Below are positions 390-63,410 of a stretch of 64,000 nt of DNA, piece after piece; within the stretch, counting starts at the first letter, position 1, and each line of letters opens with the position of its first letter. Under the pieces are notes generated by a model, which was not told the origin of the DNA, did no database searches, and was given only the letters and a program-made list of their open reading frames with translations. Origin of the DNA: Chrysomallon squamiferum (lineage: Eukaryota > Animalia > Mollusca); contig CM022668.1 in assembly GCA_012295275.1 (NCBI GenBank), positions 4,836,001-4,900,000 on the forward strand. Reading direction: 5' to 3'. A program made the translations under genes and the position numbers.

Positions 390-3300
390 CTGGAGGAGCT
401 TCGGAGAGAAACGAGAAAGAAACAAAACAAAATTATTTTAATACATCAGGTACAGAAAAGACGAATATTTTTAATGTATGTATGTCTGTATGTATGTATG
501 TATGTATATTTGTATGTATGTATGTATGTATGTGTGTATGTATGTAGGTATGTAAGAAATGGGATAACACATAGATTAAATAACGCCCCTCCGGTAAAAC
601 GTTCTGACGATTCATAAATAAAAACTGTGAAACATCTAAAAGTTCACAATTGGAAATTGAACATTTCACGTGATATAACTGAAGGGGAAGTTGTACGGAC
701 GTCAAAGGAAACAGAAGCATTATCGAATCAATTAACATGAAATTACCAAGGCAGCACACTTCAGTCTGATTCGCACAGGTGTAAGCATCATCTTCAGAGC
801 CAAGGGTACTTAAACAGTCTGATGATGACGCACACACGGCAGTTACTACCATATGAGCCGAACAGTCTAAAAGGAAAATTAGAAAGGAAAAAAGAAAAGA
901 TTAAAACTGAGTCTCTCTGTTTCTGTCTCTATATCGTTCTCTTTCTTTATCAGTTTCTCTCTCTCTGAAACATTTGAACTAAAACTGGATCAATGTGTAA
1001 CGTAGAAGTATCTATTGATGATGTAAGTAACAGCTTCAGCGAGGTGAATAATAAATAAATGAAATAAAAAGTGTATAAAATAAAAACAGCAATGATAACA
1101 CTTACGCGGAAATGCTTTGTTTGTATAAACGCATGTATGTTTGTATGTATGAAATGAGTGTCTGTTTATATGAATGCACTGATCTAAACATCTGGATCTG
1201 TTTCATGCATTTTTTTTTCTATGGAGAAACTAAATGAAGAAAAGATCTTTGATATCTTACCTGGAAGATTACCTTCAAAGAAAAAAGAAAAAAACAGAAG
1301 ATATATATATTATTTTAATACATGAGGGAGAAGACGAATATTTTTAATGTTTATATATATCTATCTATGTACATATATGTTTACATTCACAACACAGTTT
1401 AAAAGTACAAACAAAAGTGTTCAGGGGTTATTCAAATCTACTTGTAAATTACTTAAATGTACTTTCTCAACATATATGAAGAAAAACAAAACATCTAACA
1501 TTTCACGAGAAACATTCTAAAACAAACCATGTTCGTTGAGGACATTTTAAAACATTTCCGTATTTTTTACTGAATTCATTAGTAGATCCTTGGAGAATAT
1601 GACTTTATCCAGACATATGATTCTGAAAATCGCGATGCGAGTAAGATGTCGTTTTGACTGCAAATTATGATGGGACATGCAGTTATTACACGTTTCATAG
1701 TCGCTAAGTAAAATAGTGCTCCGTCACCATTTTACACTTGACAAAGATGCGGCCATTGTCAAGTATTTTGAAAATTATTTGATCTACCCTTTTAATCTGT
1801 CAAATTTAAAATTTATTCAAAAAAGTGTTTTGTGGTTTGTAATGTACGATTCCAGAAGACTTCTAGTTGAGGTTTCAAAATATCTGTTTTTGCTTTTGAG
1901 CCGAGGATGAGGATTTGCTCTATTGAGAGTATTTAAAAATGATTTTCCCAGTCATGGGCAGGTAGATTAAAATATTCACACGAATGACCTTTTCGTGCTT
2001 AAAATCATATTTATGAAAAACAGTTCTAACTCGTAACATATTTTCTGTTTTGCCGAAACGAGATTAAATGAGAAGAAAGTTTGAAAAAGTTGACATATTT
2101 TACAGTATCCTTTTCAGAAATAAAATAACATACCTTTAGTGAAATATTATAAAAGAAAACTGACACAACTGTCTCCTTCTGGAGATAGTTATGACAGTAT
2201 ATAAATAATTTTTTTTTTTTTTTTTTTTTTTTTAAATTGCCCCCTGGAAATAGAACGTTATACGTGATGTTGCTGAAGAGAAGTTGTACGGACGTAAAAG
2301 AAGACACAAGCATTATCCAATCAGTTAACATGAACTTACAATAGCAGCACACGTGAGCTGGATCCTCACATCTGTATTCTTCAGTAATATCGAGAGACAG
2401 AGTCATACACTCTGCCCCTATCACACACTGGGAAGATGGGCTTGGATGTTCGACACAGGCTAAAAGGAATACCAGAGAGGAGAAAAAGAAAAATCGTTAA
2501 AGTAGAAAGATTCTCTCTCTCTCTCAGTTTTTGTCTATATATCATTTTCTTTCTTTATCACTCTCTCTGAATGATTTGAACTGAAACGGATATAATGTGA
2601 AGCGGTCAAAAGCTTATGAGTGATGTAAGTAACAGCGTCAGTCAGACGAGCAATAAATCAATGAAATTATAAAAAACAATAACACTTACCTGGAGACGAT
2701 TTGATCGAAAAAAGTATGTATTTTTTGAATGTACGTACGTATGTATGTATGTTGCTATGGATAAGACAATGTCTTTATGTTCATGCACTGATCTAAATAT
2801 ATAGGCATGTTTAATGTATTCTTTATGAAGAAATTAAATTAAGAAAATATGATTGATATCTTACCTGGAAGAGGAACTTCAAAAAAAAAAGAAATATATA
2901 TTTATATTATTTCAATATATTAGGGAGAAGATGAATATTTTCAATGTGTGTCTGTATGTATGTATACATTTTAAAACTATAAATAAAAGCGTTCAGCAGT
3001 TTATTCAAATCCGCTTCTAGATTAGTACAATATATAACTGAACCTATTTAGAATTATTTAGTAGTAATCCTTTCTCAACAGATATGAAGAAAAACAAAAC
3101 ATCTAACATTTCACGAAAAACATTCTTAAACAAAACATATCCTTTGAAAACATTTTAAAACATGTCTGCATCTTTTACTCATTTCATTCGTAAATCCTTC
3201 CAGAGACAGAAAATCACGATGCCAGAATAATGTCATTTTGACTGCAACCTAGGATGGCACATGGAGTTATTAAACGTTTCATAGTCTGCAAGCACACACA

Positions 3301-5715
3301 TGACAAAGATGCCAAAATAAATATCTGATATATGAAACTCGATTTTTGATGCGTTTCTCATTTAAATTCAAAGATGTTACCTTTATAATCAATTTAAACC
3401 TTTATAAACAATATAATCCTTTCAGATGGTCTTTCTCCATCTGGGTATTCTTCAAATGCTCTCTAAAGAGAATATATGGCCGCATCGATGTTTATATTTG
3501 TGATTATCGAATCTGAATGAAGCGTAACTAAAAGTGAGTTTTGTAGAAATAGAGCGTTATACGTGATGTTGCTGAAGAGAAGTTGTACGGACGTAAAAGA
3601 AGACACAAGCATTATCCAATCAGTTAACATGAACTTACTATAGCAGCACACGTGAGCTGCATCCGCACATCTGAAATCTTCAGTAGTAAGGGCAGACATA
3701 AGTGTACAAGCTTCTCCTGTCATACATTGGGAAGATGGGTTTTCATGATCGACACAGTCTAAAAGGAATATCAGAGAGGATAAAAAGAAAAATCGTTAAA
3801 GTAGAAAGATATGGTCTCTCTCAATAATCAATAATAAGACTTACTTGGAGACGCTTTGAGCGAAAGATAGAAACATATATGTATGTATGTAAGAAATGAG
3901 TATCTGTTTATATAAATGCACTGATCTTAATATCTGGATGTGTTTCATGCAATATTTTTCTATGGAGAAACTAAATTAAGAAAAGATCTTTGATATCTTA
4001 CCTGGAAGAGGAGCTTCAAAGGAAAAAAAGAAGAATATATATTTTAAAACTACAAACAAAAGCGTACAGTGGTTTATTCAAATCCACTTCTAGATTAATA
4101 CAATAGATAGCTGAGCCTACTCAAAATTATTTAGAAGGTATCCTTTCTCAAAATACACAAAGAAATACAAAGCATCCAACATTTCATGAAAAACAAAACT
4201 TATCCTTTGAAAACATTATAAAACATTTTTAAATCTTTACTGAAAACGGTCGTAAATCGTTCCAGAACAGTTACGATGCTAAATAATCAAAATAAATATC
4301 TGACATATCCAAGTGGATTTTTGCTTGCTTCGTTTGAAACCGATACAAACACAACAAATTTCGGCTGAAACATTTACCCGTAAACCTGTTGATTCATTTC
4401 TCATTCAAATTCAAAAATGTTACGTTTTTCCTTAATTCAAATTATTCTATAATACTTTCAGATGGTTTCTCTGTATCTGGGTTTTCTTCAAATGTTCTTT
4501 AAAGAGAATATATGGCAGCATCGACGTTTATATTAGTAAATATGGAATCCGCATGAAGCGTAACTAAAAGGGACTTTTGAGGTTCTGTTGTTTAAGATAT
4601 ATTAAATAAAACAGCATCTGTATTTTCAACAAAACTATCGTGTCTGTTTCCAAATGTATTGAAAAATGTGTATATGTACGAGTTATGTATGTTAATGAAC
4701 GTGTGTTTGTGTCAATGTATTAGATGGTAATATGCGTTATGTATCAAATATATCTGGATGTATTGCATGTATTTCTTTATAGAGAAAACAAATTGTCAAA
4801 AATAATGTTTGATATCTTACTTGCTGGTGCAGCTTCAGAGAGAAATAAAGAAAAAATACAAAAAGTAATCATATTAATACATCAGTTAGAAAAAAAGAAG
4901 AATATTATTAATGTACAGACAGAGAAAGAGACGTAAATGAAACATGGACAGGTAAATACAGAATGAGAGAGATGATGAAAGACAGAGAGAAAGAGATTTA
5001 TATATAGGTAGAGAGACAGATAGATAAACAGACAGATAGAGACAGAGATATATACAGAGACAGTTGTAATTTATTCTTACGCAGTGCTTCGCAGTCGTCC
5101 AACTGTTTTTTCAGACAGTCAATTTTCACCAGCATCTTTTGAGTTCTGAAAGACAAAAACAGTTTTTTAACTGATAAATATTTTATATTACACGTGTCAG
5201 TTATTGCTTTTCAGGAAAGAAAACTTCTCATACAATTTACATTATTTTACTTTAGGAAAAGCTTAGTTTAGAAACAACTCTTAAAGTGTGTCTGTTTTAT
5301 TTCGTTTGGTTTTATTTATTTACTGTTTTTTTTCTTTATTTACGTATTTATTTATTAATTTTTTTTCTTTTTTCTTTTAGAAACTTTTTTTTTTTGTATT
5401 TTTATATTTATTTGTTTATTTGTTTCTTTGTTTCTTTATTATCATTATAATAATTTCGGATGTTAGTATAATTATTCTTGTTTTCTTTGTTCTTACTACT
5501 ACTACTACTACTACTACTACTACTACTACTACTACTATTCTTCTTCTTCTTCTTCTTCTTCTTCTTATTATTATTATAAACACAAAATAAGTTACTTACT
5601 TCTGACTACAGCTTTCATCCGATTCCTCATGTCCCCACCCCCAGTGTTCAAGGTGTGACTCTGCTACAGTCAGACATGTTACAACCAACACGCAAATAAT
5701 CAGAGAAGATTTCAT
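390..5715 (-). CDS. Subfamily-A micro-exon gene A1: secreted coiled-coil/stalk protein with at least 3 six-Cys domains; 3' end lies beyond the window start
   Basis: Exons (minus strand, GT-AG): 5715-5600 (MKSSLIICVLVVTCLTVAESHLEHWGWGHEESDESCSQ); 5145-5081 ([22 protein letters not shown]); micro 4832-4821, 4013-4002, 3853-3845; Cys exon 3758-3639 (CVDHENPSSQCMTGEACTLMSALTTEDFRCADAAHVCCY); micro 2876-2865; Cys exon 2459-2340 (CVEHPSPSSQCVIGAECMTLSLDITEEYRCEDPAHVCCY); micro 1272-1261, 1114-1106; Cys exon 866-747 (CSAHMVVTAVCASSSDCLSTLGSEDDAYTCANQTEVCCL); micro 398-390. Frame is continuous and all exons after exon 2 are phase 1-1. Confidence 0.85.
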
Positions 5716-5832
5716 TTTCACTTTTTTCTGCTTCTTGTACTCAGGACTTTGTTGAACTGTGTGAGCTCTGGAAATGCGAGACGTACTGATATTTGTTTCT
5801 TTTGTCAACGTGTACAATGGAAAATTACACTT

Positions 5833-62867: not shown

Positions 62868-63132
62868 TTATTATTATTATTATTATTATTATTATTATTA
62901 TTATTATTATTATTATTATTATTATTATTATTATTATTATTATTATTATTATTATTATTATTATTATTATTATTATTATTATTATTATTATTATTATTAT
63001 TATTATTATTATTATTATTATTATTATTATTATTATTATTATTATTATTATTATTATTATTATTATTATTATTATTACTACTACTATTATTATTATTATT
63101 ATTATTATTATTATTGCTATTATTATTATTAT
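62868..63132. repeat. Long (ATT)n microsatellite, representative of many (AG)n, (ATT)n and (TACA)n tracts in the window
   Basis: About 88 near-perfect triplets. Confidence 0.97.
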
Positions 63133-63385
63133 CATCATGTGGGTGGAATGCCCAAATATCTCAATATTTTAAGTTCGCATTTGAATATGTAATAAAATAG
63201 TAAAGAAAAGAAAAGAAAAGAAAAAGAAACTGAATGTAATAATCTGTGTTACTATTAGCTTCAGTTTGAACCTAGGTGCATGTTAAGAGAATTCTTAAAA
63301 GAAAGTTGAATAAGTCATTTCATTTATCTCAGTATAAATGAAAGGATACACATCAGTATTGTCCAATCAGTTGACATGAACTTAC

Positions 63386-63410
63386 CATAGCAGCACACAT
63401 GATTTGGAGC
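63386..63410 (-). pseudogene. 3' remnant of a Cys-domain exon (APNHVCCY|gtaag)
   Basis: The conserved exon end and downstream intron (GTAAGTTCATGTCAACTGATTGGA) are retained; the 5' part and acceptor are deleted. It lies in a block resembling the B2 3' region (62300-63260 ~ 55200-55890). Confidence 0.7.

Follow-up and report, generated by a model that had tools for sequence, protein, structure and literature searches.

In this study, a 64,000-nucleotide stretch of the genome of the mollusk Chrysomallon squamiferum (assembly GCA_012295275.1, contig CM022668.1, positions 4,836,001 to 4,900,000 of the forward strand; hereafter the window, whose own positions are used throughout) was analyzed, and a cluster of eight related micro-exon gene bodies was recognized in it. 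These duplicated genes are predicted to encode secreted, disulfide-locked coiled-coil proteins that carry defensin-fold heads on stalks rich in proline and threonine (Pro/Thr), and the proteins may serve in innate immunity as multivalent binding or agglutinating factors. We place the probability of this reading, its immune role included, at about 0.4, and consider the architecture alone to be quite probable. The observations below support the secreted modular design that a preliminary description of this DNA had put forward, namely a putative coiled coil flanked by cysteines (Cys), a Pro/Thr stalk and diversifying six-Cys heads.

Gene bodies and exon plan

The entire window was read for exon mapping, for which motifs and splice sites were used. 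The eight gene bodies fall into two subfamilies, A (g1, g2, g3, g5, g6 and g7) and B (g4 and g8), and their plan runs from an exon for a signal peptide and a histidine/tryptophan-rich (His/Trp) peptide to a helix exon, micro-exons, one or more six-Cys exons (the heads) and a tiny last exon, as follows:

g1 (A), 390..5715, minus strand: exon 1 5715-5600; helix exon 5145-5081; 7 micro-exons; heads 3758-3639, 2459-2340 and 866-747
g2 (A), 10868..15620, minus strand: exon 1 15620-15505; helix exon 15145-15080 (66 nt); 5 micro-exons; heads 13421-13302 and 11407-11288; last exon from 10932
g3 (A), complete and open, 17641..20746, minus strand: exon 1 20746-20631; helix exon 20450-20386; micro-exons of 3, 12 and 3 nt; head 18058-17939; last exon 17651-17641
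g4 (B), 25608..33731, plus strand: exon 1 25608-25708; helix exon 26384-26449 (66 nt); 13 micro-exons (Pro-Thr-Thr repeats); cationic 99-nt head 32805-32903; last exon 33727-33731
g5 (A, without exon 1), 34910..38078, minus strand: helix exon 38078-38014; 5 micro-exons; head 36604-36485 (dead acceptor); head 35370-35254; last exon 34923-34910
g6 (A), 41015..44051, minus strand: exon 1 44051-43936; decayed helix exon near 42762; micro-exon 42031-42017; head 41433-41314; last exon 41025-41015
g7 (A), complete and open, 117 codons, 47270..51186, plus strand: exon 1 47270-47385; helix exon 48444-48508; micro-exons of 12, 15 and 15 nt; head 50698-50817 (GC donor); last exon 51176-51186
g8 (B), complete and open, 113 codons if 58601-58592 is not exonic, 56112..61002, minus strand: exon 1 61002-60902 (weak donor); helix exon 59569-59505; 5 micro-exons; head 56522-56406; last exon 56122-56112

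Exon 1 measures 116 nt in A and 101 nt in B, ends in phase 2, and specifies a hydrophobic leader and a His/Trp-rich peptide with one Cys. Exon 2, previously given as a 65-nt coiled-coil exon in all bodies, has that length in five of the eight, leading from phase 2 to phase 1 over 21 residues; it is 66 nt long in g2 and g4, where the resulting frame shift brings stops at codons 98 and 107, and it is decayed in g6. The six-Cys exons, 12 in number, are 99, 117 or 120 nt long and every one is phase 1-1. Micro-exons with AG/GT ends amount to 41 of 3-15 nt, with a 42nd at 31102-31113, their sizes being 3, 9, 12 or 15 nt, and they contribute 6-36% of the coding length in five models. Similar segments with dead splice sites occur at 2698-2690, 41765-41751 and 10275-10264. 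Seven last exons were located, in which the stop follows after 0-3 whole codons (20 in g2) with AATAAA downstream, and that of g1 does not lie inside the window. The g1 frame stays open over 205 codons without a stop and runs off the left edge, and a further g1 head is expected beyond it because segment 1-559 is homologous to the stalk region of g3. Only g3, g7 and g8 are complete and open, g8 on the understanding that its 10-nt micro-exon-like segment (58601-58592), which has a weak donor, is left out, as the frame is lost if it is included. The picture of eight bodies in two subfamilies holds, but an intact plan common to all of them was an overstatement, three being complete, four damaged and g1 open past the edge.

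At the head exon end of g7 (50817, plus strand) the donor is GC, where the paralogues have GT. Upstream of the B starts (25608 and 61002), TATAAA stands about 75 nt before the start codon and is followed some 20-25 nt later by TCAGT, a canonical core promoter layout; the A genes show no clear TATA box and bear tandem upstream repeats of about 148 nt.

Micro-exon signals, reading frame and splicing

A micro-exon signal was defined as a pyrimidine tract, AG, 3 to 18 nt and GTRAG, and was counted in 29,924 bp of gene bodies. The sense strand holds 38 such signals and the antisense strand none, local shuffles (n=200) giving a mean of 2.4 and a maximum of 9. This pattern is far above background, with the reservation that the 38 signals represent 25 distinct sequences, many of them recent duplicates, so that they are not independent and nominal p values are overstated. 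All 38 have a length that is a multiple of 3, and with the 12 phase 1-1 head exons they agree with the earlier assertion that the internal exons keep the frame, the 10-nt segment of g8 being the exception. When junction codons were taken in order, 0 of the 258 tested were stops, and in-frame skipping is therefore arithmetically possible, but the proposal that any subset can be skipped or shuffled is overstated as a working mechanism. Three exons of 3 nt with good splice sites lie on the minus strand (20065-20067, 18498-18500 and 37686-37688), and judging from the flanking sequence at least two of them are shrunken forms of the 12-nt exon of their paralogues.

A further regularity was found in the introns, where the motif TTT(C/G/T)ACGTCCG follows 10 of 10 A-type heads at 32-43 nt from the exon (for example at 3594, 2295, 702, 17894 and 50864) and neither of the two B heads. 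All 12 ACGTCCG sites of the window are of this kind, two of them (38513 and 44775) in inverted remnants, and the motif looks like a branch site or another splicing element. An acceptor comes next at about +68 in young copies, with a possible extra 9-nt exon (678-670 and 11219-11211). Docking sites of the Dscam kind were considered and rejected, since a complementary copy of the conserved intron motif is missing from the sense strand of g1-g3. Over 560-6100, three RNA runs from this organism left exon 1 and the first two heads uncovered, and among the joints listed none falls at an exon boundary; both results are uninformative on expression.

Signal peptide, coiled coil and stalk

By hydropathy and the -3/-1 rule for signal peptide cleavage, the first 20 residues would form a signal peptide whose removal after Ala/Val-Glu-Ser would leave an N-terminal His, and the products are predicted to be secreted. 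Exon 2 comprises three heptads with hydrophobic a and d positions, a periodicity borne out by permutation in four exon-2 copies (p 0.01-0.045), and among four A copies it is under purifying selection (omega 0.07-0.09, p<0.001). The Cys at the end of exon 1 and the Cys near the end of exon 2 share one register at a distance of about 21 residues, and subfamily A has a third Cys between these two. Since the helix-flanking Cys would have no partner on one straight helix, interchain disulfides in dimers or trimers are the simple reading, and the heptads and unpaired Cys make a disulfide-linked oligomer formed through the coiled coil likely.

The micro-exons encode linker only, Pro or Thr occupying 69 of the 107 whole stalk codons. 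Stalk length is altered by exon duplication, the g4 stalk being a tandem array with a period of about 311 bp, repeated 9.5 times with one 12-nt exon per unit, and skipping could possibly alter it as well.

Six-cysteine heads and their predicted fold

Six Cys are invariant in all 12 heads, which are 32-39 residues long and share 21-90% identity with a median of 38%. The Cys spacing is mostly 9-5-12-6-0, and in every head Cys2 and Cys3 have exactly five residues between them and Cys3 and Cys4 11-12, with Cys5 and Cys6 adjacent. Eleven of the 12 heads bear a net charge of -4 to -9, and the g4 head one of +5. This g4 head (32805-32903, plus strand), the sole cationic one, is also the shortest and the most like a classical beta-defensin, and it sits on the longest, Thr-rich stalk, in a body with a frame-shifting exon 2. 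A phase-1 intron directly precedes each of the 12 heads and a second one follows the domain, which qualifies the head as a mobile cassette.

AlphaFold models of the acidic g7 head (pLDDT 91.6) and of the cationic g4 head (pLDDT 83.4) display three strands and a helix. Compared with 48,161 solved chains, with Z>=2 counted, the acidic head matched 18 chains, of which 15 are titled as defensins and the other three are a pair of Cys-rich cnidarian peptides and an unrelated enzyme; the best match reached Z 3.9 (rmsd, the root-mean-square deviation, 1.7; 35 aligned), and the C-terminal domain of an oyster big defensin is included. For the cationic head, 4 of 4 matches are defensin or defensin-like (best Z 3.0, rmsd 1.4, 30 aligned). 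From these models a trans-defensin fold is predicted for the heads. The structural check recommended in the preliminary description accordingly brought confident models and defensin neighbours, with Z at most 3.9 and zero Foldseek matches to the head model at E<=0.001, a weak row for Hact-SCRiP1 standing at E 6.8. In the ESM Atlas a beta-defensin cluster at 0.79 comes first for the cationic head, which is a lead only, and the acidic head matches an unnamed cluster at 0.78, which is uninformative. The sole sequence match in the Protein Data Bank (PDB) was a carboxypeptidase inhibitor (E 0.18-0.29 over 18-19 residues). As to the double likeness once claimed for the heads, the clip-type Cys spacing recurs in 12 of 12 and defensins are the fold neighbours, but the genes have no protease domain and no clip chain is among the fold neighbours listed, an absence from the list that is not an exclusion.

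Duplication, decay and selection

The gene bodies are related by tandem and inverted duplications, g6 being largely an inverted duplicate of g7. Five further sites with full or truncated exon 1 of type A or B were detected, beside one head remnant:

21726..21841, minus strand: A exon 1 of full length, orphan, upstream region included
22558..23130, minus strand: truncated A exon 1 (23130-23059) and diverged helix exon (22614-22558)
24489..24589, minus strand: orphan B exon 1 that duplicates the g4 5' end in inverted orientation
54334..54434, minus strand: orphan B exon 1
6757..8311, minus strand: two truncated A exon-1 copies (6820-6757 and 8311-8262), each cut by a microsatellite
63387..63410, minus strand: head-exon 3' remnant with donor site

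Orphan micro-exons, some with intact splice sites, lie beyond the eight bodies at 9564-10275 (minus), 38939-38950 (plus) and 45353-45364 (plus), and are leftovers of rearrangements. Exon 1 of g6 is on the same strand as, and upstream of, the exon-1-less g5 (38013-44051, minus), and if spliced past the damaged g6 block it could unite g6 and g5 in one gene.

In the trees of the heads and of their downstream introns alike, six young heads of g1, g2 and g5 cluster together, and nonsynonymous exceed synonymous differences per site (pN > pS) in 15 of their 15 pairs. Omega was estimated with our own single-ratio codon model, in which nine 117-nt heads were included and three heads of other lengths left out. 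It amounts to 5.5-6.1 for the six young heads under three codon-frequency models (likelihood-ratio statistics of 22-27, p<1e-5) and to 7.1 for the three heads of the open gene g1 alone (p 1e-4). These data are fairly summed up as positive selection that acted in a recent burst on one lineage of heads; the heads, formerly called hypervariable, deserve the term by their range of identity, with positive selection confined to the young clade. The best reading of the whole is a lineage-restricted, partly decayed birth-and-death family.

The DNA run X1 gives a summed contig depth of about 1800-3200 over exon 1 and its upstream region, 87-182 over the head exons and about 57 in several single contigs, which is a hint of many more 5' ends beyond the window, bearing in mind that summed depth does not equal copy number and that X1 may be the source of the assembly and so not independent. 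A third type of exon 1 is suggested by two X1 contigs that, after Trp-Gly-Trp-Gly, leave exon 1 for another Trp/Tyr ending (about YSYWPG) and carry a donor of the same phase.

The DNA of the window looks animal-like, with 30% G+C, CpG odds of 0.80 and one 200-base gap; short tandem repeats (mainly AG, AAT and ACAT) or the gap mask 12% of the window. A search of it for tRNA and Rfam families gave zero matches, and it offered no long coding ORF that would help to place the organism. Short tRNA-like stretches noticed by eye at 49690-49770 (plus), 42130-42210 (minus) and 63760-63790 (minus), to which ARAGORN and Rfam returned no match, are probably remnants of short interspersed elements.

Search for relatives

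Alignments of the heads confirmed 0 of 2119 candidates among longer proteins and 0 of 1 among proteins of similar length, and alignments of exon 1 against proteins 0 of 253. A HMMER search against 1.84 billion representatives produced six matches, five of them lipoprotein-like and one a spurious repeat. The five (P0001 and P0003-P0006, with P0004 named deltaproteobacterial) are acidic and resemble bacterial lipoproteins, with six-Cys repeats that end in CC and stand in tandem on Asp/Thr linkers; we rejected them as relatives, the helix and the His/Trp peptide occurring in none, and take the likeness as convergent. On metagenome contigs the exon-1 patterns confirmed 0 of 248 candidates, and a DNA pattern for the head end hit 17 loci, the six-Cys frame being absent from all of them. 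The protein and metagenome collections yielded no animal relative, and as the protein collections may hold few eukaryote gene models, these blanks are weak evidence of novelty. Nor was the architecture met with in the literature, a weak negative with subscription papers largely outside the coverage and the organism name not a search term; the accessible part of PMC12773714 held nothing relevant. The earlier opinion that this is not a named family therefore stands across protein, profile, fold and literature searches.

Proposed mechanism and alternative explanations

Under the proposed mechanism, removal of the signal peptide would expose a short His/Trp-rich N-terminal peptide, and the helix Cys would link the chains into dimers or trimers. 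The micro-exons would supply a Pro/Thr linker of changeable length, and each exon of 99-120 nt would provide one self-contained six-Cys domain of predicted trans-defensin fold. Heads would duplicate within and between genes, and the young ones would diverge with the helix being kept. A conserved helix together with diverging young heads is as expected of a fixed scaffold whose contact surfaces are engaged in an arms race, and since 11 of the 12 heads are acidic, we infer that the heads more probably bind by avidity than kill by cationic attack on membranes. We regard as doubtful the more far-reaching idea of a "defensin bouquet" as a hitherto undescribed class of recognition proteins in invertebrates, by which combinatorial in-frame skipping and exon duplication across dozens of genes would set stalk length as well as head choice and number, and so yield a repertoire of binders from a fold otherwise familiar chiefly for cationic killing.

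Several observations weigh against the immune reading. The exon joins are predictions from the DNA, and four of the eight bodies are damaged, g2 and g4 by the frame shift, g5 by the lack of exon 1 and g6 by the decayed exon 2. The young clade was chosen after the tree had been seen; the nine alignable heads together give an omega of 1.4 that is not significant (p 0.1), three older heads give about 0.5, and the divergence of exon versus flanking intron in three independent young pairs is likewise not significant (p 0.13). All fold Z-scores are below 8, the tool's trust level, and their weight lies in consistency; the models gave no readout of the disulfide pairing, which in beta- and big defensins is Cys1-5, 2-4, 3-6. 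At E<=10 the Pfam defensin families matched 0 of 12 heads, short divergent domains often escaping profiles, and Pfam CLIP_1 was sub-threshold in 2 of 12 (best E 0.29). Finally, venom and reproductive roles fit the positive selection and the fold equally well.

The proteins could belong to a venom or to a salivary or defensive secretion, in which the heads would have channels, receptors or enzymes of prey or predators as their targets, multivalency coming from the coiled coil. The fold neighbours include platypus DLP-1 and DLP-2 and anemone Ueq 12-1 and Hact-4, next to the weak Foldseek row of Hact-SCRiP1; the beta-defensin fold recurs in anemone neurotoxins (PMC10210398), and clustered duplication, inversions, decay and the high omega of young copies also fit. 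We nevertheless consider a venom unlikely, because the exon translations show no obvious dibasic site that would free the heads from the stalk, and the heads are strongly acidic. A glycosylatable stalk and an oligomer domain are moreover unusual in small toxins. Reproductive surface or fluid proteins (of seminal fluid, sperm coat or egg capsule) under sexual selection come to mind as well, given that epididymal beta-defensin 126 is glycosylated and disulfide-linked; an acidic defensin-like domain, a Thr/Pro linker and spare Cys would be shared, positive selection would be expected, and absence from protein collections fits narrow expression. Yet nothing points to the gonads, and the serial duplication of heads in one gene suggests many targets, which renders this role rather improbable.

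Protease inhibitors or cascade decoys, in which a multimer of clip-like or carboxypeptidase-inhibitor-like domains would block host, microbial or prey proteases, would account for a Cys spacing that in 12 of 12 heads is that of group-1 clip domains, and for the sub-threshold CLIP_1 matches and the carboxypeptidase inhibitor of the PDB. These matches are at chance level, however, no protease domain follows the heads, and no reactive loop or C-terminal tail is conserved across them, so there is little to recommend this explanation. A structural or adhesive protein of mucus, glue, cuticle, shell or tube, with coiled-coil cross-links, metal or pi contacts of His/Trp and calcium-binding acidic heads, would explain the His/Trp peptide, the spare Cys, the charge and the cnidarian Cys-rich peptides among the fold neighbours; an omega near 6 in the young heads is hard to reconcile with it and the proteins are small and not repeat-dominated, and we deem it a poor candidate. 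Least credible by far is an array of repeats, dead or never coding, in which the exons would be an artefact of reading. The damage to half of the bodies and to five orphan or truncated 5' ends, and the missing transcript support, speak for it; the strand bias of 38 versus 0, the 38 of 38 in-frame lengths, the six invariant Cys of the 12 heads and an omega far from 1 in both directions speak against it, and the omega of exon 2 with the invariance of six Cys across 12 divergent heads confirms coding.

If the immune reading is correct, the defensin fold would serve here as a swappable binding module on an oligomer, a task for which lectin, C1q or fibrinogen heads are normally used. The symmetric-exon design known from micro-exon genes (MEGs) would then occur outside flatworms, with cassettes that are linkers as well as whole domains, and the contrast of an omega of about 0.08 in the helix with about 6 in the young heads would mark an ongoing arms race. 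Annotation readily overlooks genes with exons of 3-15 nt, a possible reason for relatives being off record and such families undercounted.

Comparison with known systems

Trans-defensins (PMC7203481) resemble the present genes in a six-Cys domain ending in CC, the predicted fold being nearest to beta-defensins and the big-defensin C-terminal domain, and in tandem expansion, rapid divergence, a phase-1 intron and an N-terminal part able to drive assembly. Big and beta-defensin genes have that phase-1 intron 5' of the Cys domain (PMC7203481), a weak likeness as phase 1 is common before secreted modules. Unlike trans-defensins, panusins included, the genes here show no prodomain or dibasic site and no hydrophobic globular N-terminal domain, and where big defensins have the latter, a His/Trp peptide is found, followed by a heptad helix and a Pro/Thr stalk; at least three heads per chain are possible, 11 of 12 heads are acidic, and the cassette has a second phase-1 intron.

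Group-1 clip domains, masquerade included (PMC1761132), have five residues between Cys2 and Cys3, fewer than 16 between Cys3 and Cys4 and adjacent Cys5 and Cys6, which 12 of 12 heads fit, and they too are hypervariable and occur several in a row. In contrast to clip serine proteases and their homologues, however, no protease-like domain accompanies any of the seven last exons, the N-terminal part is a predicted coiled coil, and CLIP_1 is far below its cut-off.

Schistosome MEGs (10.1101/2023.06.21.545858, PMC4350168) are likewise secreted, with very short symmetric exons in multiples of 3, duplication and raised dN/dS, and the likeness suggested earlier holds for the short symmetric exons and the signal peptide. 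By definition, a MEG has the greater part of its coding sequence in micro-exons (PMC4350168), and there isoforms are documented, whereas here the share is 6-36% and confined to the linker, the variable part is a folded domain, and the genes have been read from DNA alone.

Bivalve C1q-like type II proteins (signal peptide, coiled coil and C1q head; PMC6835236) are also secreted, with a presumed oligomerising coiled coil, variable and sometimes several heads, tandem duplication and positively selected sites, and they are a precedent for tandemly expanded, coiled-coil-oligomerised secreted recognition proteins. They differ from the present genes, in which a defensin-like head of about 38 residues stands on a micro-exon stalk, with no C1q or lectin head and no collagen. 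We regard this likeness as analogy and not homology. Collectins and ficolins have a comparable layout, again by analogy. The cluster departs in a defining character from each of the big defensins, clip proteases, MEGs and C1q proteins; in kind it is an ordinary birth-and-death cluster of secreted proteins, and in design it is unusual.

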